A stretch of 64,000 nt of DNA, taken from the NCBI GenBank assembly GCA_037142735.1, contig JBAXAB010000002.1, positions 11,988 to 75,987 on the forward strand. The letters are read 5' to 3'. Positions 6,917 to 57,015 of this stretch are shown piece after piece. Origin of the DNA: a bacterium (GTDB lineage Bacteria; Patescibacteriota; Minisyncoccia; Phycocordibacterales; CAIZLB01). Each line of letters starts with the position of its first letter. The stretch's first letter is position 1. The translations under genes were made by a program, and so were the position numbers. The notes below the pieces were generated by a model. The model ran no database searches. It was given only the letters and a program-made list of their open reading frames with translations, and was not told the origin of the DNA.

Positions 6917-7513
6917 ATGAAAAAAGATAAATCAAATGGTGGCTTTACCCTTATAGAACTTCTTGTTGTCCTTTCAATCATCGGAGTTTTAGCGGCTATT
7001 ATAATGGCGAGCTTAAACACTGCTCGTGCCAACTCGCGTGACATGGTCAGAAAACAAGAATTAGTTCAACTTAGAAATGCGCTAGAGGTTTATCGCACCA
7101 CCCACAACTCGTACCCTTCAACCGGCGGAGTATGGTACGCATCGATTCCAGGTGGCGAGACGGCCAGTAACCCTGTTCTGAGCGACAATGGAGGAGATTG
7201 GATACCAGGGTTAGTACAATCTAAAGCAATAGCTAAACTGCCCCAAGACCCAATAGGTGGAATATCTACCATTCCTGACTGTGCAGTAGATGGTTGGCAT
7301 AAAACCTTTTTATACCAATCGAATGGCACTGATTACAAAATTGTTTCTCACTGTGCACCTGAGGGCACATGGACCACTAAAGACCAATTTTATGATCCCG
7401 CTCCCAGAGCATACTGGGCCTGGATGATCACAAGTAACCCCGCCAAACAACCAGGAAACAACGGGACTGACTGTAACCCGCAGTTTGACGTAAATTATCC
7501 TGCGTGTTGGTAA
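6917..7513 (+). CDS. type IV pilin-like protein (prepilin-type N-terminal cleavage/methylation domain)
   Basis: N-terminus KSNGG|FTLIELLVVLSIIGVLAAI is the class III signal peptide with conserved Glu+5; Cys pair near the C-terminus. Confidence 0.7.
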   Translation: MKKDKSNGGFTLIELLVVLSIIGVLAAIIMASLNTARANSRDMVRKQELVQLRNALEVYRTTHNSYPSTGGVWYASIPGGETASNPVLSDNGGDWIPGLVQSKAIAKLPQDPIGGISTIPDCAVDGWHKTFLYQSNGTDYKIVSHCAPEGTWTTKDQFYDPAPRAYWAWMITSNPAKQPGNNGTDCNPQFDVNYPACW

Positions 7514-7538: not shown

Positions 7539-8273
7539 CTATCTCCCCCACCTCACAATCAACCTTTCTATAGTGTTATAAAAATCAATTTTTCCTCGGT
7601 GTGCGAGATGATACATTTCGAATAAAGAATTTAATACCTGATCCAAATCTTCTGCTTTCCACTTTAAACTTGCTGATTTTGCATTTTTGAAGACATACGG
7701 ACCAAGGTCGGCACCTACAGCGGACTGTGCAGTACTCGCTAATCTGACAGCTTTCATTTGCCACCACAAAACCCCATGAACTTCCTCAGGCGCCAATTTT
7801 AAATCTAAGAGTGCATGAAAATATTTTTCGGTTTTTTGAAATTCTCGATTGGCAAACGACATAGCAAAAGCAAAAGTTGGAGCTTCATTTTTCCTAGGTT
7901 CATTAATGGGTATTTTTTTAAGCAGGAGTTCTTGTGATTTCTGAGCAACTTTTTTAATTTTTTCTTTGTTCTTTTCAGTAATATTTCCTTCAGCAATAAT
8001 ACACACATGATCTGCCGATTTCATTTGTGGGAGAAAATCTACAAGTTCTGAAAAGGCCTCTTTGTTTTCTGAAATAAAATTAAAAACAATTATATATTTA
8101 GAAAGAAATAGACCTTGAGCATTTAAAAGTTCTTGAACATATTCAGACCTCCAAGACCCGCCTTCAATTTTAAAAACGGATGCGTCCTTTTGTTTAGCCA
8201 ACAAAGCATCCACGGTCGCTGTGATTTTTTCTTTAACTTTTTTAATATCATCACCGTAAATAAATAAAATCAT
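7539..8273 (-). CDS. DNA polymerase III delta subunit (HolA)-like
   Basis: 244 aa; weak HolA-like pattern; immediately downstream of polA; start set at MILFIYGDD to avoid overlap with the polA stop. Confidence 0.4.
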   Translation of the reverse strand: MILFIYGDDIKKVKEKITATVDALLAKQKDASVFKIEGGSWRSEYVQELLNAQGLFLSKYIIVFNFISENKEAFSELVDFLPQMKSADHVCIIAEGNITEKNKEKIKKVAQKSQELLLKKIPINEPRKNEAPTFAFAMSFANREFQKTEKYFHALLDLKLAPEEVHGVLWWQMKAVRLASTAQSAVGADLGPYVFKNAKSASLKWKAEDLDQVLNSLFEMYHLAHRGKIDFYNTIERLIVRWGR

Positions 8274-8277
8274 TTTT

Positions 8278-10782
8278 TTATTTATTAAAGTCTTCCATTT
8301 CACCCCAGTTATCACCAACCTCGACTTCAGTAATTACAGGCACCCCGTGTGTTTCTTTTCCTTCAAAAACTGACTCCATAATTTTACGGATCTTTGGAAT
8401 AATTGTAGGTAACATTTTTTCTCTGACTTCATAAACCAACTCATCGTGCACTTGTAGAATTAGGCGGGCATCATCAAGCAGTTTTTCATTTTTTAAATAG
8501 TTGTGAACATTTTTCATCGCAATTTTAACAATGTCCCCTTCCGTCCCCTGAATTGGAGCATTTATAGCCATACGTTCGGCCATGGCACGGATAAAAGGCA
8601 GGGGTGATTTAAACCCTTGGAAATGACGGCGACGATCAAACATGGTTTCTGTAAAACCTTTTCGTTCAGCTTCTGCTTTGGTTTCATTCAAATAATGAGC
8701 CAGCCCTGGAAAGGTTTCAAAATAGGTATTGTAAAAGTCTTGAGCTTCTTCACGCGTGCCTCCTAGATTGGTTTTTAAAGCACTCACTCCCATTCCGTAT
8801 AATATTCCAAAATTAATCACCTTTGCTTTTCGGCGCATATCTTTTGTCACTTCCCCTTCCGGCACCTTGAAAACCTGAGAGGCCACACCGGTATGAATAT
8901 CAATTCCACTTTTAAACATCTGAATTAACTTTTCATCTTTTGACAACATGGCGGCTATACGCAGTTCAATTTGAGAATAATCTATAGCAACCAATTTGAA
9001 ACCTTTTTCAGCCACAAAAGCATTTCTGACCTTGCGACCCAGTTCTGTTTTGATCGGAATGTTTTGTAGATTAGGATCTTGAGAGGCCATACGTCCTGTG
9101 GTTGTTCCGGCTAGTAAAAAAGTCGCATGAAGCCTCCCGTCCTCTGCCACCAATGTTGGTATTGTGTCGATATAGGTTGAAAGAAGTTTTGCTAATTCAC
9201 GATATTCCAAAACAAAATCAATGATTGGGTGTTCACCACGCATTTTTTCCAACTCTGATTCCTTAGTAGACATGGCGCCGGTTGCTGTCTTTTTTATTTT
9301 TGATTTACCAGACTTTGCCCCGAGAGACAAAACATTAAACAAAATCTCACCGAGCTGTTTCGGTGAATTAATATTAAATTCATTTCCTGCCAGTTCCCAA
9401 ATTTTGGTTTCTAATTTTGAAAGCTGCCGATGGTATTCACCTGCTAAGATTTTTAAATACCCCACATCGATTTTTACTCCAACATCGTGCATAAGATTAA
9501 CAACTGGAATGAGAGGCCACTCTATTTCTTCGGCAACATGGAGCAGTTTTTGTTTTTCAAGATCAGCAATAATAACCTTCTCCGCTTCAGATAAAGTGTC
9601 TTTTTTTGTAAAGAACAACACATCCTCGACCGAAGGGTTGGTCTTGTTTGAATCGACCACCCACAAACCGACCGTCAGTTTCTGTGCAAGAAGTTGGTCA
9701 TCTTCACTCATCTTTATTGAATCATCGGGCTTAGGGGTGTCAGACCTATCTTCAACTTTCTTGATCACTTCATACCCCTTACCACCATTTTTTGTAAACA
9801 CCTCTTTTACCCTAGTGACCAGCGAGCGGAACTCAAACTCTCTAAAGAGACCTTCAACTTTTTCGATATTAACTTGGTCGATCCATTTTTTGTCAGGGAG
9901 TGAAAATGTAATTGGCGCGTCTCGACGAATAGTTGCCAACATCTTACTAAACCTTGCTTCCTCTTCCCCATTTTTTATTAAATCAAACATTCGATCTGTT
10001 AGACCAGAATCTTTTTTAAATTTTGCTTCGTCCTTTTTTAAAGCCTCGTACATAGCTTCTATTGTCTTGTACAAAGTAATTAACGTTGTTGCTGTTTTTT
10101 CACCGATTCCTTTTATACCAATAATATTATCCGACGGATCCCCTCTAAGACCTTTATAATCTGGTAAAGACAGTGGGGCAAAACCAAAACGTGACAATAC
10201 TGCAAGTTCGTCGTACACCACGACGTCTTTGATCCCCTTCTTTAAGGTGTACACAAGGACTTTGTCGCCATCAATTAACTGCATAGTATCCATGTCTCCT
10301 GAAGCAATAATAATTTTAATATCTGTTTCACCTTTTTTATTTGTTTCTGAAATCCTGTGAACAATCGTCCCCAACATATCGTCTGCCTCAAAACCTGGCA
10401 TGTCATACATTGGTACAGAAAACGCCTCAAAGATTTTTCTAGAATTTTTTAATTGTTCAACCAACGCATCATCAGTTTTTTGTCGAGTCCCTTTATAAGC
10501 CTCATATGCTTCATGTCGATATGTAGGCTGTGGAAGGTCATAACATGCAATCACAAAATCTGGATGAAACTTTTCAATGATTCCCATCAACATTGTTGAA
10601 AGCCCATAGAGCGCACCTGTTGGCATACCAGTACTGGAAGAAAAATCCGGCAAGGCGTGATAAGCGCGATGGATGATAGCGTGGGAATCCAAAAGGACGA
10701 GGGTCTGCGGTTCTGCCTTAGAAGAGAGGTTGTCTGTAAGCTTTTTGGATGATTTTTTATCAGTTTTTTTCATTACTACCAT
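8278..10782 (-). CDS. polA: DNA polymerase I
   Basis: 834 aa; N-terminal 5'-3' exonuclease/FEN domain and C-terminal family A polymerase motifs (DYSQIELRIAA, QVHDELVYEV). Confidence 0.9.
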   Translation of the reverse strand: MVVMKKTDKKSSKKLTDNLSSKAEPQTLVLLDSHAIIHRAYHALPDFSSSTGMPTGALYGLSTMLMGIIEKFHPDFVIACYDLPQPTYRHEAYEAYKGTRQKTDDALVEQLKNSRKIFEAFSVPMYDMPGFEADDMLGTIVHRISETNKKGETDIKIIIASGDMDTMQLIDGDKVLVYTLKKGIKDVVVYDELAVLSRFGFAPLSLPDYKGLRGDPSDNIIGIKGIGEKTATTLITLYKTIEAMYEALKKDEAKFKKDSGLTDRMFDLIKNGEEEARFSKMLATIRRDAPITFSLPDKKWIDQVNIEKVEGLFREFEFRSLVTRVKEVFTKNGGKGYEVIKKVEDRSDTPKPDDSIKMSEDDQLLAQKLTVGLWVVDSNKTNPSVEDVLFFTKKDTLSEAEKVIIADLEKQKLLHVAEEIEWPLIPVVNLMHDVGVKIDVGYLKILAGEYHRQLSKLETKIWELAGNEFNINSPKQLGEILFNVLSLGAKSGKSKIKKTATGAMSTKESELEKMRGEHPIIDFVLEYRELAKLLSTYIDTIPTLVAEDGRLHATFLLAGTTTGRMASQDPNLQNIPIKTELGRKVRNAFVAEKGFKLVAIDYSQIELRIAAMLSKDEKLIQMFKSGIDIHTGVASQVFKVPEGEVTKDMRRKAKVINFGILYGMGVSALKTNLGGTREEAQDFYNTYFETFPGLAHYLNETKAEAERKGFTETMFDRRRHFQGFKSPLPFIRAMAERMAINAPIQGTEGDIVKIAMKNVHNYLKNEKLLDDARLILQVHDELVYEVREKMLPTIIPKIRKIMESVFEGKETHGVPVITEVEVGDNWGEMEDFNK

Positions 10783-11252
10783 TGTACCTTACGAGTCGTT
10801 TCATCAACAAACTTGAAGAAAATCCATTTAGCATTGGCTGGAATTGCATCAGCCACCTTTTCTGGCCACTCTATAATCATGAGGTTTTTAGGGTCCTTTA
10901 GTAATTCATCAAACCCTAATGGGATTAATTCACCCAAACCCTCAATCCTATACATATCCACATGAATTATCTGTGAAATCTGTTTCAAGTTTTGATAACT
11001 GTTTTCAGTAATTTCATATCTTTTTTGTAACACAAACGTGGGGCTAGTGACATAATCAGTAATTTTAAAAATATTCGCAACCTGTTGAGTGAACGTAGTC
11101 TTGCCTGCTCCCAGATCACCAGAAAGACACAAAACTGTGGCACCAGCATTAGGGACACTGAGATCTTGTAGAAGACTGCGCGCAAAAACCTGCATTTCTT
11201 CAATACTTTTTATCTCTATTTCATTATTACATTTTACAATAAGATCGTTCAT
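10776..11252 (-). CDS. tsaE: tRNA threonylcarbamoyladenosine biosynthesis ATPase TsaE
   Basis: P-loop SGDLGAGKTTFTQ and YjeE/TsaE-like length; internal ATG (MNDLIV) chosen because a terminator hairpin lies at 11305-11337. Confidence 0.65.
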   Translation of the reverse strand: MNDLIVKCNNEIEIKSIEEMQVFARSLLQDLSVPNAGATVLCLSGDLGAGKTTFTQQVANIFKITDYVTSPTFVLQKRYEITENSYQNLKQISQIIHVDMYRIEGLGELIPLGFDELLKDPKNLMIIEWPEKVADAIPANAKWIFFKFVDETTRKVQW

Positions 11253-11304
11253 GGTTTTATTGTTTAATGATACTACAAGATAATCAACTTCTCGGCAAAA
11301 TCTG

Positions 11305-11337
11305 GCAACAAAAAAACGCAAACCGTCTGTTTGCGTT
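11305..11337 (-). terminator. rho-independent terminator
   Basis: minus-strand hairpin aacgcaaac-cagac-gtttgcgtt followed by a T7 run; downstream of the L,D-transpeptidase gene. Confidence 0.5.
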
Positions 11338-11429
11338 ATGAATCATATGAATCAAATGAACTTTTGGAAACACCCTCCTCCAGGGCCACGACCACACCCC
11401 TGCAGGGTGGGTCGTGGCTTCTTGGCTTA

Positions 11430-12326
11430 TCAAGGCATCACCATGTCCGGTATGCGAGGCATTTGCCGCTTTTCCAGTTCGGAATTCAGGACATCTGCGC
11501 TGATCGTGATAGCACAACCATCAAGGATGATACCAAACAAACGGTCCTTGACGATCTGCCCCCTCGGGACAGGACGGAACATCGGCTGAAAGGCCTTGGT
11601 ATGGGGGCTGGCAAGGAAAGCCCGGACCCGAGGATCGAGGCCGGTTAACCGGTACTCCCAAGTAAGGGCCGAGGAGTCCAAGATCAAGGCGATTATGTTG
11701 TTCGTGAGAACTCGATTTTCAACCTTGATGTCCCTACCGACAAGCGCATCGCCGTAGGGTCTTGCTAAAGGACTCAGGAATTCGCACACACCCTCGAGAC
11801 CTTTCGGCTTTTGGACGGCGAAGTAAACCCTGAGACCACCCTTGTTCTTCTGTGCGTCTGCACCGAGAAGCCCTGTAGGGAACTCCTGCCTGACCTCGAT
11901 GGTGTCACCCTTCTTGGCGATACTGTACAGCAACATGGCTGAGTACCAATCCAATCTGATGCAGCCGTGAGAACCTTCATCCCAATCCTTGTCGAGACCG
12001 AACAGTGTGCCCTGATGGATGCAAAACCCCCTGCCGCCCGAGAGGAGAAGGCACCAGAGCATGACCGCTCCGGGAAACTCCTGTGACACCCTTCTCAACA
12101 TTCTGTCTTCAACAAAATATGAGCCCTGGGGTGTCGGCAAACTACCTCTGCCTGTTGTTGTAGGACACACCATCATCACAACGCCTTCAGCGTTCACGTA
12201 GCAGAGCCTTTGCTCTTGCAAGCTGATGATAATGCGACCCGTCTTTTTACCTGCCATGCCGTTGCTGCCCGCCTCTGCATTGAATGCAAGGCACAGCACT
12301 AACCAGAAGGTCAGTATTTTTTTCAT
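11430..12326 (-). CDS. L,D-transpeptidase (YkuD domain) with signal peptide
   Basis: 299 aa from MKKILTFWLVLCLAFNAEAG; catalytic motif GSHGCIRL; lies in the GC-rich island. Confidence 0.6.
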   Translation of the reverse strand: MKKILTFWLVLCLAFNAEAGSNGMAGKKTGRIIISLQEQRLCYVNAEGVVMMVCPTTTGRGSLPTPQGSYFVEDRMLRRVSQEFPGAVMLWCLLLSGGRGFCIHQGTLFGLDKDWDEGSHGCIRLDWYSAMLLYSIAKKGDTIEVRQEFPTGLLGADAQKNKGGLRVYFAVQKPKGLEGVCEFLSPLARPYGDALVGRDIKVENRVLTNNIIALILDSSALTWEYRLTGLDPRVRAFLASPHTKAFQPMFRPVPRGQIVKDRLFGIILDGCAITISADVLNSELEKRQMPRIPDMVMP

Positions 12327-12560
12327 TTGTTTTAAAGGGCTGCGATGTACCAAGACAGATTCACTAGAATTTGCCTTGTAACACCTGGTTAAACTCAGAT
12401 CTAATTATACAATAGATAATAGCCTTATGTCAATATTAAAATTTAAACAATAGAAAAGGCCCTGGGTGCACTTCGTTTCGCCTTGCGGCTAACGAGAGTG
12501 CATTCCAGGACCTTGTTTTGCTTCACAGAGTGGATCGAGGGTGAAGCTTCCTCTTTGTCG

Positions 12561-13178
12561 CTATTGTCCGAGCGCGACTACGCCCCCCCCGTTACGCTGG
12601 AGGAATCGGGTTCCGGCTTCGGAACCTGCAGCCCTCTTCGTTGCCGTCGAGCCCCGCGTGTTGTTGTACGCGTTCTCTGCTGACCGGATTGCACCCGTGT
12701 ACAGATCAGGACGAAGGTGTTTCTTCCCGTCGAGACCCATGACAGCGACGCTGTCTGGGTACCCGCTGATGAAGACCTTCGTGGTGCCGTTCGTGTTCTG
12801 GTAAGGAATCACGGGTTGCGCGACTGGGACGTCGGGTTGCGGCGCCGGCAGCATCTGGGATCCGGGGATCTCGATGGGCACGAAGCTGGCCTGCCGATTG
12901 CTGCAGCATCCGAAGACCGCGCAGGCGATCCCGATCAAGGCGATGATGCCCAAGATCGCGAGGAGTGCGTACCAGACGTTTTTCCATCCGGTCCATGCGC
13001 AGGCCTGCGGGCAGGGCTGCGCGGCGGCGGCTGGAGCGCCTGCGGGTGCAGGTGCACCGGCGGGAGCTCCGGGAGCGGCTCCGACTCCGGTGGCGGACAA
13101 ACCCGTGAGGGTTGCCGTTCCGTTGCCGTTCCCGGTGGACGTGATAGCGGTGATGTCGAACTGTGCGTTGATTTTCAT
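12561..13178 (-). CDS. hypothetical Pro/Ala-rich membrane protein
   Basis: 205-aa ORF with PGAPAGAPAPAGAP low-complexity tract and one central TM helix; GC-rich, so frame choice is uncertain. Overlapping ORFs in other frames look like GC-driven artefacts. Confidence 0.35.
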   Translation of the reverse strand: MKINAQFDITAITSTGNGNGTATLTGLSATGVGAAPGAPAGAPAPAGAPAAAAQPCPQACAWTGWKNVWYALLAILGIIALIGIACAVFGCCSNRQASFVPIEIPGSQMLPAPQPDVPVAQPVIPYQNTNGTTKVFISGYPDSVAVMGLDGKKHLRPDLYTGAIRSAENAYNNTRGSTATKRAAGSEAGTRFLQRNGGGVVALGQ

Positions 13179-13198
13179 GGTGTTTTTGTTTTCTGAGT

Positions 13199-13259
13199 GT
13201 TGTTATCTGCAAAAAATAGCTTTAAGGCTTATTTATAGCCACTTTTTGCAGATAACAAC
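13199..13259. repeat. perfect 17-bp inverted repeat (gttgttatctgcaaaaa / tttttgcagataacaac) with 27-nt spacer
   Basis: read directly; 20 nt upstream of the minus-strand ORF start at 13178 and at the GC-rich/AT-rich boundary. Confidence 0.55.
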
Positions 13260-13516
13260 TAAACCCTTTCGAAACCTCCTCTACCTTGAAAATCTCTTGT
13301 AAGTAACTTTATCTGGTATTAGTATAGCATACTATCCTATCCTGTCAAGTACCCCCTTCCCGCCATGTTTTATGTGTGTTTTTGTTGTTTTTTGTACGTA
13401 AATGATCCTATCAATTCAATACCAAATCTTTTAAAAAAATTTAACATAAAAAAATAAAAAATTTATCACCATTTTTAATAGCTCACGTTACGATAATCAA
13501 GTATAATGTTTTTGAA

Positions 13517-15196
13517 ATGATCAAGTTCGACGAAGATAAACAAAATCAAAAAATACGAGAGCTCCGAATCAAAGAAGAAGAGCAGTCTGCACAACTCATT
13601 GCTGATAGATATGGTATTGCATACATCGACCTCACCAGAGTTCCGATCAACACAGATGCGCTTCGACTTATAGTAGAGGATGAGGCACGTGAAAACAAAT
13701 TAGCAGTTTTCGACATAGTGGGTAGAAAAATATCGGTGGCCATTCATTCCCCTACCGATGAAAAAATAAAACAATCAATTGAAGTCTTAGCGAAAAAAGG
13801 TTATGCCCCAACCTTATTTATGACATCAATTATTAGTTTAGAAAAAGCGTGGGACAGATACAAAGATCTTTCTTTTGCTTTTGAGACCGAGGCTGGATCG
13901 CTGGATATTTCAAGTGATGAAATTGAAAAGTTAATTGAAAAGTCGCACAAAATGCCAGACGTCATCGCTCTTTTGAACGAAGCGATGCAGATGAAGAAAA
14001 GTCATCGCACCTCACAATTGCTGGCTATCATGATGGCAGGTGCCTTGGCAACAAAAGCCTCAGACCTTCACATTGAACCAGAAGAAGACCACGCTCGCCT
14101 TCGCTACAGACTAGACGGTGTGTTAATCGAGACTGTTCAGTTCGATTTGGATACTTATAATTTATTATTGTCTCGTTTAAAATTACTTTCAGGCTTGAAA
14201 CTCAACATTAAAGAGAACTCTCAAGACGGACGCTTCACTGTAAAAATTTACACAAATGATATTGAAATTCGTACTTCAACCATTCCTGGTTCATATGGAG
14301 AATCAGTGGTAATGCGAGTCTTAAACCCTTCAAGCATCTCTGTGGGTATTGAAGATTTAGGAATGCCAACAAAACTTTATAATTTAATTCAAGCAGAAAT
14401 TAATCGACCGAGCGGTATGATTTTAACTACAGGACCAACTGGTTCCGGCAAAACCACAACCTTGTATGCCTTTTTAAGAAAAGTAACAAATACTGAAACA
14501 AAAATAATCACCATCGAAGACCCGGTTGAATACCACCTGCCCGGAGTTGTTCAAACGCAAGTAGAAGAAAAAAAGGGTTACACCTTTGAATCCGGATTGC
14601 GTTCTGCTATGCGACAAGATCCTGACATTATCATGGTGGGTGAAATCCGAGATGGCGAGACGGCAAACACTGCTATCCAAGCGTCTCTTACTGGTCACTT
14701 GGTTTTTTCTACCCTTCACACAAACAGTGCGGCGGGAACATACACTCGATTGGTGGATTTGGGCGCTGACCCAAAGGTTTTAACTTCTGCCATTCATGTG
14801 GCCCTTGCGCAACGATTGGTCCGAATTTTATGTAAAAAATGTGCCAAGAAAATTCCGGTGCCAGAAATCAGAAACAAATTAATTGATGACGTTATTGCCT
14901 CATTGGTTGGGCTAGACGAAGCCTCTGAATTTCCCACTAGACCAACAGAGATCTGGCAGGCAGTTGGATGTGATGCTTGTAATACCACAGGATATAAAGG
15001 ACGAATCGGGGTATTTGAAGCAATCTTCTCAGACCAATCAATTGAGCAAATTATTCGTGAAAGCCCTAGTGAAAGAGAGATAAAAGAGGTTGCAAAAAAA
15101 CAAGGAATCATCGATATGAAGCAAGATGGTGTTTTAAAGGTGCTACGCGGGGTTACTACTTTTGAAGAATTGGAACGTGTGGTTGATTTGGTTTAG
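13517..15196 (+). CDS. pilB: type IV pilus assembly / type II secretion ATPase (PilB/GspE family)
   Basis: 559 aa; Walker A GPTGSGKTTTLYA, Asp box, His box and C-terminal tetracysteine (CKKC...CDAC); -10 TATAAT at about 13500. Confidence 0.85.
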   Translation: MIKFDEDKQNQKIRELRIKEEEQSAQLIADRYGIAYIDLTRVPINTDALRLIVEDEARENKLAVFDIVGRKISVAIHSPTDEKIKQSIEVLAKKGYAPTLFMTSIISLEKAWDRYKDLSFAFETEAGSLDISSDEIEKLIEKSHKMPDVIALLNEAMQMKKSHRTSQLLAIMMAGALATKASDLHIEPEEDHARLRYRLDGVLIETVQFDLDTYNLLLSRLKLLSGLKLNIKENSQDGRFTVKIYTNDIEIRTSTIPGSYGESVVMRVLNPSSISVGIEDLGMPTKLYNLIQAEINRPSGMILTTGPTGSGKTTTLYAFLRKVTNTETKIITIEDPVEYHLPGVVQTQVEEKKGYTFESGLRSAMRQDPDIIMVGEIRDGETANTAIQASLTGHLVFSTLHTNSAAGTYTRLVDLGADPKVLTSAIHVALAQRLVRILCKKCAKKIPVPEIRNKLIDDVIASLVGLDEASEFPTRPTEIWQAVGCDACNTTGYKGRIGVFEAIFSDQSIEQIIRESPSEREIKEVAKKQGIIDMKQDGVLKVLRGVTTFEELERVVDLV

Positions 15197-17271: not shown

Positions 17272-17634
17272 ATGAAAAGCAAAAAAGTGGATCAACAAAA
17301 CAACAAAAAAAGTAAAAAAAATAAAGACGCCGAAGAAGAAGTTTCTGACAAAATTTTAGTCGACGATAAAGAGGTGGATGAGGACCATCCTGAAAACCCA
17401 GGAGTTCCCCTTTCAGAAGAAGCCGCGGACGCTCAATTAAACCCGGAAGTTTTGGCTGGCGCTGAAGAAGAACACTCAGAACTTCCAGACGAAGTTGGCT
17501 TTGATGATTTAACAGATGATGAGAGAGAAATGTTGGGCCTTGAAGCAAAACCTAAGGCTGTATCTGAAGATGGTGAAGAGGAAGCCGGAACTAGTTGGGA
17601 AGAGTTCGGTTACGACGAAGAAGAACTACAGTAG
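17272..17634 (+). CDS. hypothetical highly acidic protein
   Basis: 120 aa, Asp/Glu-rich with basic N-terminus; the antisense ORF 17270-17548 looks spurious. Confidence 0.4.
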   Translation: MKSKKVDQQNNKKSKKNKDAEEEVSDKILVDDKEVDEDHPENPGVPLSEEAADAQLNPEVLAGAEEEHSELPDEVGFDDLTDDEREMLGLEAKPKAVSEDGEEEAGTSWEEFGYDEEELQ

Positions 17635-21780: not shown

Positions 21781-22881
21781 TTAGCGGTTCATGGGCATAA
21801 CTACGTATGAAAACGAATCATCATTTACAACTTTTATTACCAAAGGTGTATTTGTACCACTAAACATAAAAGTAAGACTGTCTGCTTTCAAAGAATTAAA
21901 AGCATCACTAATATATCTAAAATTAAAATTCAGACTAAGGTCGTCCCCTTTTACTGTTGCATTAATTAGAGAGGAATTTTCTCCAACTTCGTTGTTTTTA
22001 GAGATTATTTCCATCTGTTTCTCTTTTGAGTGGACGGTTAGTTTTACGTGATTAAAGGTATCAGTGAAAATAGTGCTTAGTTTTAAGCTGTTTATGAGGT
22101 CTTGTTTCAAAATAGTGACCTCAGAGGTAAACTCTTTTGGAAAAATAGCCTTATAATTAGGAAAGTTTCCTTCTGTTGTTCTTGAGACAAGATACAAATC
22201 GTCAACCATAATAGCCATTTGATTTTTATCTATCAAAATTGATATTTCAGCCTTTATATCGTCAATAATCCTTATAATTTCAGAGACGTTCTTGATAGGA
22301 ACAAGAATTGCAGGAAAATCTACTCCTTTTTTTGTTCTTACTTTCTTTTCAGCAAGACGGAAGCCATCTGTGGCAACAAAAACAATAGAATCTCCCTCAG
22401 GATAGATTTTAACACTAGATAGCTCTGGTTTTATAGTAGAGGTAGCGGAACTGTATGAAACACTCCTTAAACCCTCTATAAAGTCTTCTGAGGCTATATT
22501 AAAACCATTAGGTGATTCAATTCGCGGTATTGAAGGAAATTCTTCAGGGGAGAAACTTTTGATAATCGTACTGTTTTTTGAAGTTGATACGTGAAGATTG
22601 TTTTCTATGGTCTCTAATATTATAGATTTTTCGTTTCCAACATTTGAAAGAAATCCGTTCAAGATCGTACCCGGTGCAGCTACCTGTCCTTTTTCTGTCA
22701 CTTTAACAGGAATTTGAATTTCAATCCCTAAATCCAAGTTAGTGGCTTTGATAGTTAAACTATTATCCTGCGCTTCTATAAATATGCACTTCAAAATAGG
22801 CAAAGAAGCGTTTCTTCCGGTGACTTTTTCTGCTTTCGCTACAGCATGTGCCAGTTTTTCTTTAACGGATTCAATTTTCAT
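21781..22881 (-). CDS. dnaN: DNA polymerase III beta sliding clamp
   Basis: 366 aa, three-domain clamp; sits immediately downstream of dnaA. Confidence 0.85.
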   Translation of the reverse strand: MKIESVKEKLAHAVAKAEKVTGRNASLPILKCIFIEAQDNSLTIKATNLDLGIEIQIPVKVTEKGQVAAPGTILNGFLSNVGNEKSIILETIENNLHVSTSKNSTIIKSFSPEEFPSIPRIESPNGFNIASEDFIEGLRSVSYSSATSTIKPELSSVKIYPEGDSIVFVATDGFRLAEKKVRTKKGVDFPAILVPIKNVSEIIRIIDDIKAEISILIDKNQMAIMVDDLYLVSRTTEGNFPNYKAIFPKEFTSEVTILKQDLINSLKLSTIFTDTFNHVKLTVHSKEKQMEIISKNNEVGENSSLINATVKGDDLSLNFNFRYISDAFNSLKADSLTFMFSGTNTPLVIKVVNDDSFSYVVMPMNR

Positions 22882-23180: not shown

Positions 23181-24512
23181 TTAAATGAGCGCCTTAATCT
23201 GGTTTATTTCTCCGGCCAGTTCACTGTTGTTTTTCAATTCGTTTCTAATCTTTTCACACGAGTGAATGATGGTTGTATGGTCTCTTCCTCCCATTTTTTG
23301 TCCAATTGACGGGAAAGAGTGGTTAAATTCTTCACGGAGAAGATACATGGCCACTTGTCTGGGTTTAACTATCTCTTGGCGGCGAGTTTTGCTGTAAATA
23401 ATCTCTTCTTCTATGTTGTAGTAAGCAGAAACGGCCTTTATAACATCCTTAGCAGAGACATTTTTCTGAGGTTTTGTGGTATTTTTGGTAAGATTCTTAA
23501 TTTCCAACAGTGTTAAGTCCCGGTTCTTTAACTGGGACTGACAAATAATATTGTTTAAGATCCCTTCTAGTTCTCGAATGCTGCCGTGTACTGTTGTGGC
23601 AAGGAAGTCAGCTGTTTCGTGAGGTAAGTTAAAATTTCCATGCAGAGCTTTGGTCTTCAGGATGGCAATACGAGACTCTTGGTCAACAGGAGAAATATCA
23701 ATGATCATTCCCTGCATAAATCTTGATTTTAAACGATCCTCGAGGTTTTGGAGGTAATTGGGGTGCATATCAGAAGAAAAGATAATCTGTTTATTGCTGT
23801 CATATAAATAGTTGAACAGATGAAACAATTCTTCCTGGGTCTTTTCCTTATTAGAAAGAAATTGGATATCATCCATTATAAAAACATCGTATTTTCGGTA
23901 CTTTTCCTTAAAATTGTTAACTTTGTTGGCCTGCACAGCATTTACATAGTCCACCGTGAACTTTTCTGAGGTTACGTAGTGTACCCTCTTCTCTTTGTTG
24001 TGGTTTTTAAAGTAGTTCCCTACCGCCTGCATAAGGTGGGTTTTTCCCAAGCCGGTATTTCCGTGGAAAAAGAGCGGGTTATAAGCCACTGGCTTCTTTA
24101 AAATTGCCTGGGAAGCCGCATGCGCCAGTTCGTTAAAGGGCCCAACCACAAAAGTTTCGAAAGTATAGCGTGGATTAAGGTTGTCTTCAGGATTTATAAC
24201 AAGATTGTCCAAAGGAAGTTCTTTTGTGGGTCCTGGCTGAGGTGTTTTATCAGACTTTTTCTTCTCAGCTTGTCCTATTGAATACTCTAAAGACCTAACG
24301 TTTTCCTCTATATTACGTAAAGATTGCAAAATAACCTTATGGTACTTGGTCTGGAGCCAATCTTTAACAAAAGTGTTAGGAACCGCAAGAAACACTACAC
24401 CGTCCTCAATTTTGGATATAAAAGTATCTTTGAACCACGTGGTGAAGTTCGGGCGCGAGACTTCGAGTTCAACTTGAACCAAAGCTGTATCCCAAATTTT
24501 CTGTGTGTTCAT
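23181..24512 (-). CDS. dnaA: chromosomal replication initiator DnaA
   Basis: 443 aa; AAA+ Walker A GNTGLGKTHL, domain IV DNA-binding helix-turn-helix. Confidence 0.9.
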   Translation of the reverse strand: MNTQKIWDTALVQVELEVSRPNFTTWFKDTFISKIEDGVVFLAVPNTFVKDWLQTKYHKVILQSLRNIEENVRSLEYSIGQAEKKKSDKTPQPGPTKELPLDNLVINPEDNLNPRYTFETFVVGPFNELAHAASQAILKKPVAYNPLFFHGNTGLGKTHLMQAVGNYFKNHNKEKRVHYVTSEKFTVDYVNAVQANKVNNFKEKYRKYDVFIMDDIQFLSNKEKTQEELFHLFNYLYDSNKQIIFSSDMHPNYLQNLEDRLKSRFMQGMIIDISPVDQESRIAILKTKALHGNFNLPHETADFLATTVHGSIRELEGILNNIICQSQLKNRDLTLLEIKNLTKNTTKPQKNVSAKDVIKAVSAYYNIEEEIIYSKTRRQEIVKPRQVAMYLLREEFNHSFPSIGQKMGGRDHTTIIHSCEKIRNELKNNSELAGEINQIKALI

Positions 24513-25161: not shown

Positions 25162-25896
25162 ATGTTTTCATCATTTTATAACAATTTTCTTTATCATCCT
25201 TTATACAACGGCCTTGTTTATCTTATTGGGGTTGTCCCCTACCACGACGTTGGTATAGCGGTAGTGGTTCTTACTTTGGTAGTTAAGTTTATCCTTTTCC
25301 CTCTTTCAAAGAAGAGTGTAGTAACTCAGATCAAAATGAAACAGCTTGATCCTGAATTAAAAGCATTACAGGCAAAGTATAAAGATAATCGACAGGAATT
25401 GTCGCAACAATTACTTACGTTCTATAAAAAGAATCAATTAAACCCTTTCTCTGGCCTTTTTCTGATCCTTCTCCAGTTGCCTATTATCTTTGCTCTTTAT
25501 AAAGTTTTTTACTCTGGAGACATCCACATTATAAATACAACAATTCTCTATTCTTTTGTGGGCATTCCCGCTGCTATTAATACTATTTTCTTGGGAATAT
25601 TCGACCTTGCTATTAAACACTCGCTTTTCCTATCTATATTTGTCGGTATTACCCAGTTTATCCAAGCTCAGTTGGTTGTTCCTCCCCACGATAAAACTAA
25701 ACCAATAGATCCTAAAGACATGGGACAAAATTTGGCTCGTAGTATGAATACTCAAATGAAGTATGTTCTACCTGTATTTGTTGCCTTTATTTCATATTCC
25801 TTAGCCAGTCTGGTTTCTGTCTACTGGATCACAAGTAACATTTTCGCTATCGGTCAAGAGTTGTATTTCCGTAAAACTATTAAGAAGAAGTCTTAA
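25162..25896 (+). CDS. yidC: membrane protein insertase YidC (short Gram-positive/CPR type)
   Basis: 244 aa, five TM helices, conserved hydrophilic groove region; synteny after rnpA. Confidence 0.8.
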   Translation: MFSSFYNNFLYHPLYNGLVYLIGVVPYHDVGIAVVVLTLVVKFILFPLSKKSVVTQIKMKQLDPELKALQAKYKDNRQELSQQLLTFYKKNQLNPFSGLFLILLQLPIIFALYKVFYSGDIHIINTTILYSFVGIPAAINTIFLGIFDLAIKHSLFLSIFVGITQFIQAQLVVPPHDKTKPIDPKDMGQNLARSMNTQMKYVLPVFVAFISYSLASLVSVYWITSNIFAIGQELYFRKTIKKKS

Positions 25897-31418: not shown

Positions 31419-31862
31419 CTACTTACCAACAATCTGCTTAAGCTTCTTCCCACCAGAAATTGCGATTTTCATATATATGATTTCACAAGTCCACTTTGGA
31501 AAAGCATTCAAAACGGGTATAAAACCTACGATTCCCACAATGACAGTCACTAATCCTCTAGATCCTTTGGTAAACTTTATCCCCTTCATTTTGAACCAAA
31601 TCCAGAAACTAAGTATGGCTGCTGGAGTAATCGTGACATCTTCCAAGAATCCACCCGCAATCGGTATTAAGTTCATTAAAAAACAACCTACATCAAAGAT
31701 TATTGCTAAAATTAACATTAAGAAAAAAGTTCCCCAAGGTAGGTCTGGATCGTCATCTTTAATTACTCCTGCGGCCGCTACCTTGGCCTTAATTTTTTGA
31801 TCTGCGAGTCTCGCATCCTCCACACCAGCCATTTCTTCAATTGTTGCTTCTGCGCTACTCAT
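31419..31862 (-). CDS. hypothetical small membrane protein
   Basis: 147 aa, three to four TM helices; overlaps the upstream VirB4-like gene by 8 nt. Confidence 0.4.
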   Translation of the reverse strand: MSSAEATIEEMAGVEDARLADQKIKAKVAAAGVIKDDDPDLPWGTFFLMLILAIIFDVGCFLMNLIPIAGGFLEDVTITPAAILSFWIWFKMKGIKFTKGSRGLVTVIVGIVGFIPVLNAFPKWTCEIIYMKIAISGGKKLKQIVGK

Positions 31863-33732
31863 TTATTCTTCCGAGGGCTGACTTTAACTTGTCGCTTCGC
31901 TCTTTACCCTCTTCTATGCTTTTTGTTGCCAAGTCCTCTTTTGCTTTTTTCATCGCTAGAATTTCTGATGGTTTTGTCGTAATGATCTGTTCTTCTGTGT
32001 ACGAAGCAATGATTTTAATCGCTACGTGTTTCAGTCCTGCAAAGAAGATCCCCTCTCCTACGTCTGATTCAAGAAGTAAATATTTTTCCTCATCTGTTAA
32101 GTTGAATGTCTTTTGAACAATATCAATAGATGATGGAGACTGTTTCAAGAGAACTTGAATTGAAGAGTTGGTAATGATTGGTAATCCATATGGAGACTTA
32201 AGGAAGTCCTCAACGTCTTGTGTGATTGTTGCCATACCTAAATAATATTTTCGTCCTCTCTTTGCTAGTCCATACAAGAATGAGGCTGTGTCGTCTGATT
32301 TCATCATCCACCACGCTTCATCGATAACAAGAAGGCGTTTTTTGATTTCTTTTCGAATAGAGTTCCAAATGAAGTGCATCACGATGTACATTGCGATTGG
32401 CTTCAATTCGTCTTCCATGTCTCGAAGTGAGAACACCACGAATTTTTTATTTATGTCCACGTTTGAAGGGCGGTTGATGAAACCTGCCCACGTACCCTTT
32501 GTGTATTTTGTGAGACGTTGTGCCAGGGACTCTCCCCCTTCCATGCCAGCCAGTACCAATTCGAAATCTGACATTAGGGGCGGTTCGACTGCTGCAAAAT
32601 TTGAATCGGCGGTGATGTCTTTTAATGCATATGTTTCGCTGATGGCTCGGTCAATAATCGCATCTTCTTCAGGTGTTAATCCTCCCAACATAATTCTGAA
32701 AAGTCCCACCAAGTTAACAATGTTTGAACGTAAAATATCAGCTGGAGCTTCGTCTTCGCGTGGTACCGGCAAATCAAACGGGTTGATGTGGTGTTCAGAT
32801 GTAAGGGAGATGTTGAAATATCTTCCACCTGTCGCTTCTGCGAGGTATTCGTATTCTTTTTCAGGATCAAGAACGATTACATCTGTATCAAACATAAGGC
32901 TTCTCAAGATTTCCAGTTTTGTGGCAAAAGATTTACCAGAACCTGCCTTGGCAAAAGTCACTGAGTTGTAGTTTTCCAGAGAAAATCTATCAAACAAAAT
33001 TAAACTTGAATTGTGACGATTGATGCCATAAAGGATTCCCTTATCTGAGGTAAGGTCAAATGAAATGAATGGAAAAAGACTAGAAAGTGGTGAAGAGTTT
33101 AGTTTAGAGTGCACCAATAATTCGTCCTTTGCTATAGGTAAAATACTTCGATAACCCTGCTCTTGTTGGAAGAGTGCCGGTTTGATGTAAATAAGCGCTG
33201 ATTCAAGGATGGATTTGATCTCAGACTCGATCTTGTCCAACTCTGTTTCACTTTCTCCGTAGACGGAGATGTACAAGCCAACATCGAATAGTTTTTCTTG
33301 AGCTTGTTGCAAGTTGTCTCGCAAGGCTTCTAGGTCTTGGTACGCAGTATCGAGCATCGGGTCTCGAACCAACCCCTTCTCTTCTCGCATGTGGATCTGG
33401 CTTTGGACTTCGGCTACTTTCTTTTGAAATTGGCGAAGCACTGTAGCTGTATCAATCGGGTGAATGAATATTGAAATATCAAAAATTTTATCTAGGTTAA
33501 TGATTGGAGAAAACCAACCTTCGTTTAGAAATCTCGGGTATGAGATAACAAAAAATGTTCTCACAATCTTGTCTCCAAGGTTAAGACCTCGCGGTGTTAC
33601 CTTAAGCGCAGACGGGGCGATAATGTCCTGTAATTCTAAGACCCCCGCTTCATATATTTCCTGAGGAAGAATCGAAGTGAGCGAATTCTTTTCTTTTTCT
33701 TTTTTGGATTTTAAAAAGTCTAATATTCCCAT
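31855..33732 (-). CDS. VirB4/TrbE/CagE-like type IV secretion ATPase (C-terminal ATPase body)
   Basis: 625 aa; Walker A FAKAGSGKS, Walker B LLVIDEAWWMM, VirB4-like C-terminal motifs. Confidence 0.7.
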   Translation of the reverse strand: MGILDFLKSKKEKEKNSLTSILPQEIYEAGVLELQDIIAPSALKVTPRGLNLGDKIVRTFFVISYPRFLNEGWFSPIINLDKIFDISIFIHPIDTATVLRQFQKKVAEVQSQIHMREEKGLVRDPMLDTAYQDLEALRDNLQQAQEKLFDVGLYISVYGESETELDKIESEIKSILESALIYIKPALFQQEQGYRSILPIAKDELLVHSKLNSSPLSSLFPFISFDLTSDKGILYGINRHNSSLILFDRFSLENYNSVTFAKAGSGKSFATKLEILRSLMFDTDVIVLDPEKEYEYLAEATGGRYFNISLTSEHHINPFDLPVPREDEAPADILRSNIVNLVGLFRIMLGGLTPEEDAIIDRAISETYALKDITADSNFAAVEPPLMSDFELVLAGMEGGESLAQRLTKYTKGTWAGFINRPSNVDINKKFVVFSLRDMEDELKPIAMYIVMHFIWNSIRKEIKKRLLVIDEAWWMMKSDDTASFLYGLAKRGRKYYLGMATITQDVEDFLKSPYGLPIITNSSIQVLLKQSPSSIDIVQKTFNLTDEEKYLLLESDVGEGIFFAGLKHVAIKIIASYTEEQIITTKPSEILAMKKAKEDLATKSIEEGKERSDKLKSALGRINE

Positions 33733-52794: not shown

Positions 52795-52867
52795 GCGCTC
52801 GTGGCTCAATGGATAGAGCACTTGGCTTCGGACCAAGGGATTGCAGGTTCGAATCCTGCCGAGCGCA
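52795..52867 (+). tRNA. tRNA-Arg (anticodon TCG)
   Basis: 73-nt cloverleaf; acceptor gcgctcg/cgagcgc; anticodon loop cttcgga; T-loop ttcgaat. Confidence 0.85.
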
Positions 52868-52940
52868 CACGACCTTTAGTTATTTTTTTTATTAAGATTC
52901 CTTTCCGGGGTCTAAGTTAAGAAAAGTATAAAAGACAAAT

Positions 52941-53011
52941 GCAGGTATGGTTTAGTGGTAGAATGCGTCCTTGCCAAGGACGAGACGAGAGTTCGATTCT
53001 CTCTACCTGCA
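52941..53011 (+). tRNA. tRNA-Gly (anticodon GCC)
   Basis: 71-nt cloverleaf; acceptor gcaggta/tacctgc; anticodon stem cgtcc/ggacg with loop ttgccaa. Confidence 0.85.
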
Positions 53012-53351
53012 CAGAATATAATTCTAGCCTCTAGTTTCAAAAAACATTGATAAGTAAGGATTTTTATGAATTGGCCATTGCCAAAATGTGCAAAACTGTG
53101 GATAACTCAGTGGATATGTGTATAAAAGACAGATATCAAAAATGACAAAAATTGTCCTCTAGAAGTGTATTTTTCTAATATATCTATATTTATCAAGCTA
53201 TTTTGCGTTTTGGTGCATAAAAGACGCGGCTATAACATGTGACTTTTTATGTATCACGTGAAACATTGGTTTTATAGGATTTTAAGACAAATTAAGCAAT
53301 AATTCATTCAAGATTAAGGTTTATTTGCCTTTCGAAGCTTAAAATAGGAGA

Positions 53352-53843
53352 ATGATTGAAAGTAAGATTTTAGGTGAGTTTGGAGAGTTTTTGGCAGGGT
53401 GCCGACTTGTATCTAAAGGTCACAAAATTTTGCGAACTAGATATAGGAAGTGGGGTGGGGAAATAGATATTATTTCAACAAAAAACAAGGTTATCTATTT
53501 TAACGAAATTAAGACCAGGATTGGTAAAGGGAAGGATGGGGTGGATCTTCGGAACATAGGTATCACTAGACACAAAGTCAGCAAGGTCATTAAATGCGCC
53601 CAACATTTTATCCAGAATGAGATAGCTGATATTTTCTATACAACTAAGCAATTCGATGCCTATTTTTTAGAGGTTGTCCTAAATCAAGAGATTAAGAGGA
53701 TTCAAGAAGATGTTTCTACAGTTTCGGACCTGAAATGCTACTTTACTGAAGGAAAGATAAGAATTTTGGCCACATATATAGAAAATATGGATAGGGAAGT
53801 TTTCGGGTGCTATGGAACAAGTTTAATAAGTGATAAAGATTGA
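53352..53843 (+). CDS. YraN/UPF0102-family (restriction-endonuclease-like fold) protein with C-terminal extension
   Basis: N-terminal ~110 aa match the YraN pattern (GE..A..YL..KG..IL.RNYR...GEIDII); extra roughly 50-aa C-terminus. Confidence 0.5.
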   Translation: MIESKILGEFGEFLAGCRLVSKGHKILRTRYRKWGGEIDIISTKNKVIYFNEIKTRIGKGKDGVDLRNIGITRHKVSKVIKCAQHFIQNEIADIFYTTKQFDAYFLEVVLNQEIKRIQEDVSTVSDLKCYFTEGKIRILATYIENMDREVFGCYGTSLISDKD

Positions 53844-53888
53844 GATATGAGGATATCTGTGTTAGGATTCAACACGTTATCGGCATAT

Positions 53889-53961
53889 CGGGGCGTAGTG
53901 TAACGGTTAACATTCCTGTTTTGGGAACAGGCGACTCAGGGTTCGAATCCCTGCGCCCCGA
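53889..53961 (+). tRNA. tRNA-Pro (anticodon TGG)
   Basis: 73-nt cloverleaf; acceptor cggggcg/cgccccg; anticodon loop tttggga. Confidence 0.85.
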
Positions 53962-53966
53962 CAATT

Positions 53967-54305
53967 TTGAAAAAGTTTATAAAAAACAAGGAGGATTTTG
54001 AGTGTGAGAAATGCCATACCAAAGTGATTGGTACTGGCTATACAAACCATTGCCCTAATTGCCTCTATAGTAAGCATGTTGATGTGTCTCCAGGAGATAG
54101 GGCTAATCCATGTGGGGGATTAATGAAGCCTGTTAGAGTAGAGGGAACAGGTATAGACAAAATGCAGATAGTTCACAGGTGTGTTAAGTGTGGCGTAGAG
54201 AAAAATAACAAAATCCAATCCTCTGACAACATAGAGATGGTTGCAAATGTCGCCAAAGAGTTTGCGAAGGAAAAAGTAGAGGGTTGGAAGTTGAAAAGAG
54301 ATTAA
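53967..54305 (+). CDS. RNHCP-domain zinc-ribbon protein
   Basis: EDFECEKCHTKVIGTGYTNHCPNCLYSKHVD matches the RNHCP signature. Start is uncertain: the ORF track uses a TTG 5 nt after tRNA-Pro. Confidence 0.5.
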   Translation: MKKFIKNKEDFECEKCHTKVIGTGYTNHCPNCLYSKHVDVSPGDRANPCGGLMKPVRVEGTGIDKMQIVHRCVKCGVEKNNKIQSSDNIEMVANVAKEFAKEKVEGWKLKRD

Positions 54306-54351
54306 ATTGTAGATTTCAAGGCTCTCTGGTATATTACCAGGGTACAAAAAT

Positions 54352-54422
54352 GCGGGATTGGTTTAGTGGTAGAATGACTGCCTTCCAAGCAGTAGACAAG
54401 GGTTCGATTCCCTTATCCCGCA
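54352..54422 (+). tRNA. tRNA-Gly (anticodon TCC)
   Basis: 71-nt cloverleaf; acceptor gcgggat/atcccgc; anticodon stem actgc/gcagt with loop cttccaa. Confidence 0.85.
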
Positions 54423-54426
54423 CTAG

Positions 54427-56622: not shown

Positions 56623-57015
56623 TTACAGATCCAAAAGGCTCTTTAACCGAGCTTTTAGGGATAGATAAGTATTAATATCGAGTTGCCCATATTTATCCTG
56701 CAACCTTCGGTAGTTAAATGTTTTTATTTGGGCCAAGTTCGCAGTACTAATTTTTCCACTAAAATTGATTGATATATACCAACTCCCAGCCTTAATTTTA
56801 CTGGTCATTGGTATACCAACAAAAGAATCTTTAGATAATTTCTTTAAAATAATAACAGGTCGTATATATAAATTATCCTTACCGTTGATTTCTGAACCTA
56901 TATTAATTCCAACACTGCACCACCAGGCCTCACCTTCATTGAAATAAGGAGGTTGGTTGGCTGTAGCATCAAGATTTTGTTTTAATTCAGACCATTTCAA
57001 AAAATCTTTTAGCAC
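56623..57015 (-). CDS. MazF/PemK-family endoribonuclease toxin-like protein (GTG start)
   Basis: 130 aa; GEAWW...GSEINGK...RPVIIL...GIPMTSK pattern parallels PemK/Kid (GEIWLV...GHEQQG.RPVLIV...VVPVTS). Confidence 0.6.
   Translation of the reverse strand: MLKDFLKWSELKQNLDATANQPPYFNEGEAWWCSVGINIGSEINGKDNLYIRPVIILKKLSKDSFVGIPMTSKIKAGSWYISINFSGKISTANLAQIKTFNYRRLQDKYGQLDINTYLSLKARLKSLLDL

Follow-up and report, generated by a model that had tools for sequence, protein, structure and literature searches.

Sharp compositional islands in bacterial genomes are read, following the model of Lawrence and Ochman, as horizontally transferred DNA that is undergoing amelioration. The locus described here is a GC-rich cassette of ~2.2 kb within a 64-kb window, by which we mean the whole stretch of DNA analyzed (64,000 nucleotides of one contig). 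The cassette consists of two minus-strand genes, orfX and then the L,D-transpeptidase gene ykuD, which lie between pilB and tsaE. It resembles islands of the classical kind in its atypical GC content and codon usage, in being an insertion relative to its relatives, and in having its nearest outside homologs in genomes of deviant composition. It differs in that it carries no integrase, tRNA, or repeats, spans only 2.2 kb, is old (synonymous divergence, dS, is near saturation), and still has a high GC content at third codon positions. Comparison of four lineages shows that the cassette is an old insertion that predates the radiation of its clade. We modestly favor a single ancient acquisition from a GC-rich donor, followed by vertical inheritance, with the GC excess reflecting incomplete amelioration. 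Being old, syntenic, and still compositionally foreign, the cassette is a counterexample to the practice of reading a sharp GC island as recent transfer or misassembly.

The YkuD-type L,D-transpeptidases (LDTs) of Stackebrandtia (5bmq), Enterococcus faecium (Ldtfm), Mycobacterium tuberculosis (LdtMt2), and Escherichia coli (LdtA to LdtE) share with the cassette enzyme a Pfam match, the His...Cys-x-Arg arrangement, the predicted fold, and, apparently, an N-terminal export signal. The cassette enzyme is, however, only ~20 to 30% identical to any characterized enzyme, and the accessory domains usual in these proteins (LysM, PG_binding, and Ig-like) are replaced in it by an unmatched C-terminal domain of ~150 amino acids. 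In Salmonella, Tlde1 and Tldi1 are a secreted LDT-fold cell wall effector and its cognate immunity protein. Like that pair, and like lysostaphin-type secreted bacteriolytic enzymes, which have a C-terminal targeting domain and come with an immunity gene, the cassette sets an apparently exported LDT-fold enzyme beside a small extracytoplasmic or membrane partner gene, with fast evolution and atypical composition. Unlike Tlde1/Tldi1, it has neither a type VI secretion system nor a trafficking domain (only a Sec signal), and its partner gene lies upstream in a separate transcription unit; the likeness is one of layout. The vls locus of Borrelia burgdorferi is a GC-rich, hypervariable surface protein locus in an AT-rich genome, and the cassette is likewise a locally GC-rich, very fast-evolving envelope locus in an AT-rich genome. 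It differs from vls in having no silent cassette or paralogous copy in the 64-kb window, no variation between strains that are 99.35% identical, and no strong GC skew. Our literature search turned up neither this cassette nor any account of GC islands that persist in genomes of the candidate phyla radiation (CPR).

The initial annotation reported a jump in base composition at this site, and calculation bears it out. Positions 11340 to 13200 are 55.2% GC compared with 39.0% for the remainder of the window, a z score of 9.3 against the other windows of 1,861 bp (mean, 39.0%; standard deviation [SD], 1.7%; maximum, 44.3%). Within the island are two GC-rich bodies, at 11340 to 12353 (53%) and 12461 to 13200 (62%). 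The rise in GC content sets in at the start codons of the genes, and the promoters and 5′ leaders are AT-rich. Codon usage is shifted as well: the GC content of third codon positions (GC3) is 0.635 in ykuD (11430 to 12326, minus strand; 298 amino acids; 53% GC) and 0.743 in orfX (12561 to 13178, minus strand; 205 amino acids; 64% GC), compared with a mean of 0.349 (SD, 0.037; maximum, 0.437) for the 54 other open reading frames (ORFs) of the window. C-ending and G-ending codons both rise in the cassette, as fractions, with ATC going from 0.25 to 0.70 to 0.84, TAC from 0.40 to 0.75 to 0.92, AAG from 0.30 to 0.52 to 0.67, and the rare CGG from 0.03 to 0.22, along with increases in ACG, CCG, and TCG. 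The shift is thus one of codon usage too, beyond what amino acid content alone accounts for, and because both codon classes are raised, it is compositional and has no clean translational optimum.

The spurious GC-driven ORFs reported on both strands are also there, as overlapping frames, and such frames have misled gene callers in two public assemblies: orfX is called on the wrong strand in locus L001 (351 to 830, equal to window positions 12717 to 13196, plus strand) and in the wrong frame in locus L016 (2998 to 3579). The correct frame is the one that combines the highest GC3, on which our choice of frame was based, with a transmembrane helix. In practical terms, orfX is a gene that callers misannotate in islands of this kind. 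The Logan gene call for the enzyme, in turn, is truncated at Met24.

An exhaustive HMMER search with the enzyme as the query, covering 1.84 billion representative proteins, returned only three full-length relatives, at 35%, 28%, and 27% identity; all other matches were to the catalytic domain only. The loci of these relatives came from Logan SRR21621037 (L017), three JGI metagenomes (L018 to L020), and an ENA contig (L016), the last being 99.96% identical to a contig of the NCBI metagenome-assembled genome GFS_7744, which also holds L002, the closest PolA relative. The L018 contig (JGI 3300051785, Ga0502763_0000003) is 789,885 bp long and could plausibly represent an almost complete genome of another CPR bacterium in this clade. 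In all three relatives, pilB is divergent from an orfX-like ORF that is followed by ykuD, tsaE, and polA. The compositional contrast recurs as well, with orfX at 57 to 58% GC (correct frames), ykuD at 45 to 52%, flanks at 34 to 42%, and an AT-rich spacer between the two genes; across lineages, GC3 is 0.44 to 0.74 in cassette genes and 0.27 to 0.37 in flanking genes.

In trees of PolA and PilB, the window groups closely with L017, L018, and L016/L002 as a single clade (85 to 88% identity in PolA and 85 to 90% in PilB). In its sister clade (L010 to L012; ~60% identity in PolA and ~69% in PilB), pilB adjoins tsaE and the cassette is absent, and the same is true of the distant Paceibacteria L006, L007, and L014; the pilB-tsaE gap in cassette-free loci is ~35 to 145 bp. 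Presence in all four lineages of the clade and absence from sister and distant loci therefore mark a ~2.2-kb insertion into the divergent promoter region before the clade radiated. The cassette-free relatives probably lack the cassette genes altogether, since no other full-length family member was present among the proteins searched. No further members of the enzyme family were found by a word-based search (which retrieved only the query), a scan of viral contigs, or phage and plasmid searches, and a scan of metagenome contigs returned one unrelated generic LDT only.

The noncoding parts of the cassette tell the same story. Each gene appears to form a separate transcription unit, headed by a near-consensus sigma-70 promoter in AT-rich DNA and closed by a hairpin terminator. 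Promoter P1 (13321 to 13348, minus strand), for the leader and orfX, was found by promoter scan as TTGACA-16-TGcTATACT, with 11 of 12 consensus matches plus an extended −10 element, and its TTGACA and TATGCTATAaT are invariant across the four lineages. Promoter P2 of ykuD (12404 to 12433, minus strand; TTGACA-18-TATAAT), from the same scan, lies in the 29%-GC spacer between the two genes, matches the consensus at 12 of 12 positions, and has an extended −10 element, TGTATAAT, that is retained in L017 and L016. The minus-strand terminator named in the initial annotation was found by a terminator scan (11337 to 11315) and folds as predicted: this intrinsic terminator (11315 to 11337; 9-bp stem plus U7) would end the ykuD transcript ahead of tsaE. 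In the 3′ untranslated region directly past the ykuD stop codon lies a GC-rich hairpin (11385 to 11418, minus strand), the region of which is partly alignable with L017 and L018; the fold of 11300 to 11432 has an energy of −48.9 kcal/mol (z = −3.9). A long terminator-like hairpin with a U-tract follows orfX (12448 to 12513, minus strand; −48 kcal/mol, z = −5.3), and an analogous GC hairpin with a T-run occurs 3′ of orfX in L016, L017, and L018. P1, the orfX leader hairpin described next, the terminators, and the P2 −10 element are homologous across the four lineages, and this homologous noncoding architecture speaks for common descent of the whole cassette.

The inverted repeat reported at 13199 to 13259 is real, although its arms are 27 nucleotides long and not 17 bp as first described. 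It forms a hairpin in the orfX leader (minus strand) with 89% complementary arms and a predicted RNA fold of −35.4 kcal/mol (z = −7.6). Its core, which resembles an A-tract/hairpin/U-tract terminator, occurs as AAAAAGTGGCT..AAG.CT in all cassette loci (L016, 2787 to 2809; L017, 1997 to 2019; L018, 9026 to 9048) and in no other locus, and in the lower stem, the sequence varies by lineage while pairing is kept (folds of −26 to −35 kcal/mol, z = −5.4 to −7.6). The hairpin lies ~55 to 110 nucleotides past the conserved P1 promoter in all four lineages and matches no Rfam family. It could act as an attenuator, stabilize the mRNA, or serve as a palindromic operator, or it could mark where a short RNA ends. 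A second match to the hairpin motif, at 2124 to 2146, sits in an apparent small ORF, and we attribute it to chance. The orfX leader is CA-rich and has no Shine-Dalgarno sequence; together with the near-consensus promoters, CA-rich leaders of this kind suggest high expression. On either side of the cassette lie tsaE (10776 to 11252, minus strand; ATG at 11252; Pfam TsaE E value of 6e-30), the first gene of a conserved tsaE-polA unit downstream, and the divergent gene for a pilB-type type II secretion/type IV pilus ATPase (13517 to 15196, plus strand; Pfam T2SSE E value of 1e-120).

With regard to origin, the evidence is weak but fits the idea that the LDT domain, at least, was transferred ancestrally from a GC-rich bacterium. 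The contigs of four of the nearest YkuD homologs outside the family were examined; they are 57 to 67% GC, and their metabolism and porin genes do not look like those of CPR bacteria. A search for the donor, which had been proposed along with the suggestion of foreign DNA, led to nearest outside LDTs at ~30% identity on such contigs but identified no donor lineage, and it found no homolog of orfX. LDT matches on plasmids, from Sphingomonadales and Acidobacteria, are generic and also at ~30% identity. A phage or plasmid origin was rejected: there was no phage match, no DNA match, nothing for orfX, and no PHROG or PADLOC match.

We calibrated an amelioration clock on the four-fold degenerate sites of pilB, polA, ruvB, and the gene after polA, using the F81 correction. 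These sites are 59 to 64% different between lineages, the pairwise signal left is 0.09 to 0.16, and the ancestral state kept per lineage is ~0.30 to 0.40 (upper confidence limit, 0.43 to 0.48). An ancestral GC content at four-fold sites (GC4) of 0.85, as in a donor of ~67% GC, is then predicted to have decayed to ~0.52 today, and the observed mean for ykuD is 0.52 (0.59 in the window, 0.40 in L017, 0.57 in L018, and 0.54 in L022). An ancestral GC4 of 1.0 would give 0.52 to 0.58 (upper limit, 0.60 to 0.63). Passive, incomplete amelioration thus explains ykuD if the acquisition is not much older than the clade. The history that we favor would run as follows. A single cassette, most likely drawn from a GC-rich bacterium at least in its LDT domain, would have been inserted into the short divergent promoter region between pilB and tsaE in the ancestor of one small clade of Paceibacteria (ultrasmall Parcubacteria, CPR) and would have been inherited vertically ever since. 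Its GC excess would for the most part be a foreign composition still in the course of decay, reinforced in orfX by an amino acid content rich in Ala, Pro, Gly, and Thr.

Several observations weigh against passive persistence or against the transfer itself. The GC4 of orfX averages 0.61 (0.66 in the window, 0.53 in L017, 0.59 in L018, and 0.67 in L022) and its GC3 is 0.60 to 0.74, values at or above the ceiling for passive decay. The GC excess of ykuD falls chiefly on third codon positions, with GC1 and GC2 near host values, a pattern atypical for classical amelioration, and the spacer between the two GC-rich bodies (12354 to 12460) is host-like at 29% GC. The stem branch of the clade in PolA and PilB is long, yet the passive model needs an acquisition near the last common ancestor of the clade. 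As to the source, no donor above ~30% identity was found for the enzyme, and HMMER matches to GC-rich genomes may be biased by shared amino acid composition. Finally, signs of mobility were sought without success: there is no integrase or transposase among the two ORFs, no nearby tRNA, and no clear target duplication. A 23-nucleotide direct repeat (19 of 23 positions matching) at 11248 to 11270 and 13174 to 13196, 1,926 bp apart, is unique within the window; it spans the start codons and leaders of tsaE and orfX, is of low complexity, and is not conserved in the other lineages, so it could be an insertion relic or a chance low-complexity match.

The third-position excess, the host-like spacer, and the long stem branch lean toward a maintaining force, although with four saturated lineages they are not decisive. 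The principal alternative, to which we assign a real but clearly smaller probability, is an old, vertically inherited cassette whose GC richness is actively maintained, either by selection on the transcribed or translated region (for very high expression, mRNA stability, or avoidance of AT-rich signals) or by GC-biased gene conversion at a fast-evolving envelope locus prone to recombination. Such maintenance would account for the GC3 of 0.44 to 0.74 found in all eight cassette genes despite the near-saturated synonymous sites of the flanks, for an orfX above the passive ceiling in two lineages, and for GC-rich stretches that begin at start codons and spare the promoters and leaders; the near-perfect promoters and the Shine-Dalgarno-free orfX leader hint at very high expression. 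On the other hand, the codon shift is a general GC rise that extends to CGG, ACG, CCG, and TCG and not a clean translational optimum, ykuD fits passive decay well, and its mRNA is not unusually structured (z = −1.75). Moreover, the adjacent pilB N terminus and tsaE lack the excess divergence and GC content expected of recombination tracts. If the GC richness does prove to be actively maintained, the cassette would offer a small natural system in which the effects of selection and of biased gene conversion on bacterial base composition could be told apart.

The cassette genes diverge far faster than their surroundings. Amino acid identity between lineages is 53 to 94% for neighboring orthologs and 27 to 36% for the YkuD enzyme, while OrfX is mostly unalignable. 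Nonsynonymous divergence (dN) is 0.7 to 1.0 for ykuD and 1.0 to 1.4 for orfX, compared with 0.07 to 0.12 for pilB and polA; in pilB, polA, and the next gene, the NG86 dS is 1.9 to 4.2 or not computable, and four-fold identity is 0.33 to 0.44. Given a flank dS of at least 2, these dN values point to weak constraint or diversifying selection and do not require hypermutation; under the history that we favor, both proteins would be weakly constrained or diversifying and would have diverged far faster than any neighbor. An ongoing hypermutation process, such as that of a diversity-generating retroelement, was rejected on two grounds: two strains that are 99.35% identical differ by 114 single nucleotide polymorphisms (SNPs) elsewhere and by none in the cassette, and the coding strand is not depleted of A. 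The pilB N terminus beside the cassette shows the same conservation as the remainder of pilB (87 to 89%), and TsaE, although lower in identity (65 to 70%), is equally so in cassette-free clades. The hyperdivergent zone is therefore sharp edged and bears no trace of recombination tracts; flank hitchhiking, which we considered as a sign of allele exchange, was seen at neither the pilB N terminus nor tsaE. The next most divergent neighbor (53 to 62%) is a 120-amino-acid hypothetical protein encoded next to ruvC (17272 to 17634, plus strand), which has normal GC content and no Pfam match.

This divergence would also fit recurrent allelic replacement, in which each lineage received its allele separately, at the same locus, from an unsampled GC-rich reservoir: alleles that are 27 to 36% identical or unalignable sit beside flanks at 85 to 90%, and each allele looks near compositional equilibrium for a genome of 50 to 64% GC. 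We nevertheless regard such replacement as improbable. Searches of 1.84 billion representative proteins, 5.8 billion clusters, plasmids, phages, and viral contigs place the family at no other locus; the AT-rich promoters, leader hairpin, and terminators of the cassette show homology from lineage to lineage; the edge at pilB is sharp, without hitchhiking divergence; and closely related strains share a cassette free of SNPs.

Horizontal acquisition, as the initial annotation proposed it, stands as an old, clade-level event, whereas a recent, strain-specific transfer into the sequenced genome is refuted. The strong contrast in composition and codon usage is what such a transfer would produce, but the cassette occupies the same site in all four lineages with synonymous sites near saturation, no mobility genes accompany it, and plasmids and phages have no match to it, which leaves a recent transfer very unlikely.

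The enzyme itself is an LDT, as first called. It matches Pfam YkuD (PF03734) at 47.5 bits, compared with a cutoff of 23.4, over amino acids 31 to 145 of the 298-residue protein that starts at the ATG at 12326 (amino acids 40 to 154 of a longer, 307-residue ORF with a TTG start), and the domain is above threshold in four of four family members. His104, Ser119, Cys122, and Arg124 are invariant in the four-enzyme alignment, so that the catalytic His and Cys of the family pattern H-x(15-18)-[ST]-x-G-C-x-R are conserved, and in a PDB profile search, the catalytic residues align with LHxx...GSHGC of 5bmq. An AlphaFold2 (AF2) model of the YkuD domain is of moderate confidence (block means mostly 57 to 82, with two blocks at 44), and Foldseek relates it with a probability of 1.0 to many solved LDTs, in agreement with the YkuD beta-sandwich fold. 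The PDB profile and Foldseek matches are restricted to this domain. The C-terminal domain of ~150 amino acids has no match among Pfam, NCBIfam, PDB, PHROG, or PADLOC models, and its AF2 prediction from the four-sequence alignment has a predicted local distance difference test score (pLDDT) below 50, too low for any inference about its fold. Motifs are kept throughout this domain among the four enzymes, which, together with the conserved catalytic residues, argues that the long ykuD ORF encodes one real protein. The combination of YkuD with this novel domain appears to be a very rare LDT architecture, known from four lineages only.

The N terminus of the enzyme, MKKILTFWLVLCLAFNAEA, has the look of a Sec signal peptide, which proteins P0002 and P0004 also conserve, so the enzyme is probably exported by Sec. 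We saw no trafficking domain on it, and PADLOC and PHROG models gave no match; the Sec signal was the only one seen.

OrfX has an Ala/Pro/Gly/Thr-rich N-terminal tail, one transmembrane helix (amino acids 71 to 89), a Pro-rich linker, and a C-terminal region of ~100 amino acids. It has no homolog in 5.8 billion clustered proteins or in Pfam, PHROG, phage, and plasmid searches. All four lineages nevertheless have an ORF at the corresponding position that shares this layout (low-complexity tail, one or more transmembrane helices, Pro-rich linker, and C-terminal region), although only the L017-L016 pair aligns significantly (z = 7.1), with the other pairs at noise level. The N-terminal tails are rich in Arg and Lys in three lineages, which suggests a topology with the N terminus inside and the C terminus outside, placing the variable C-terminal region in the same compartment as the enzyme.

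In AT-rich genomes, a GC-rich island often turns out to be an RNA gene, and the orfX region folds somewhat better than its shuffles (z = −3.9, from just 20 shuffles), which raises the reading that the island is a structured noncoding RNA or another nonprotein element with spurious ORFs. This is scarcely credible: the island contains no Rfam family at gathering or E-value thresholds and no tRNA by ARAGORN (only chance microRNA-like matches on the hairpin), ykuD belongs to a genuine protein family whose catalytic residues are conserved, and in orfX, GC3 exceeds GC1 and GC2 in one frame whose transmembrane helix ORF is kept in four lineages. Least probable of all is the chimeric join, or a contaminant joined to a Parcubacteria contig, that the initial annotation had raised, as it has the composition jump and nothing further in its favor, whereas a 5,651-bp Logan contig from SRR7053531, made by an independent assembler, is 100% identical to window positions 7896 to 13546 and crosses both junctions from pilB to past polA, the same architecture recurs in three other lineages from unrelated samples and assemblers, and the GC-rich genes alternate with promoters and terminators that are AT-rich and host-like.

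The window carries a gene for a class A penicillin-binding protein, and L018 carries genes for Mur ligases and Ddl, which indicates that a peptidoglycan substrate exists, and the enzyme would be expected to act on peptidoglycan outside the membrane. OrfX may be its partner, anchor, substrate (through attachment to the wall), or immunity protein, and the C-terminal domain of the enzyme and OrfX may be a coevolving pair. Alternatively, the enzyme and OrfX could be an effector and an immunity protein aimed at the cell wall of a host. A broader scenario, which we entertain only tentatively, joins these ideas to maintenance: in an AT-rich, streamlined CPR genome, and over a period long enough for neutral sites to turn over, the GC state, above all at synonymous sites, would be kept up by selection on envelope genes with very high expression or by GC-biased gene conversion at a diversifying locus, and the C-terminal domain and OrfX would coevolve as an interacting pair (enzyme and anchor, or effector and immunity protein) in contact with the host wall. 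Both genes are candidates for abundant envelope or host contact proteins in organisms about whose surfaces very little has been learned, and their fast evolution relative to their neighbors may mark an arms race interface.

Several features were noted elsewhere in the window. The genes dnaN (21781 to 22881, minus strand), dnaA (23181 to 24512, minus strand), and yidC (25162 to 25896, plus strand) suggest that the replication origin probably lies near 24.5 to 25.2 kb, ~11 kb from the island. A few kilobases from pilB, the gene at 6917 to 7513 (plus strand) encodes a type IV pilin-like protein with an N-terminal methylation motif, which fits the pilus machinery typical of CPR bacteria. The ORF at 31855 to 33732 (minus strand) carries TraG/VirD4-like P-loop and AAA_10 domains, may belong to a type IV secretion or conjugation-like system, and has a slightly raised GC3 (0.40). 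Four tRNA genes (Arg-TCG, Gly-GCC, Pro-TGG, and Gly-TCC) cluster at 52795 to 54423 amid small ORFs, one with a UPF0102 domain and one with an RNHCP domain. Genes for PemK/MazF-type toxins occur in the window (56623 to 57015, minus strand) and in L019 (20418 to 20801); the latter lies by AbiEii/DUF6922 genes in a strain-variable stretch (17 to 20 kb of the locus) that holds almost every SNP separating L018 from L019.

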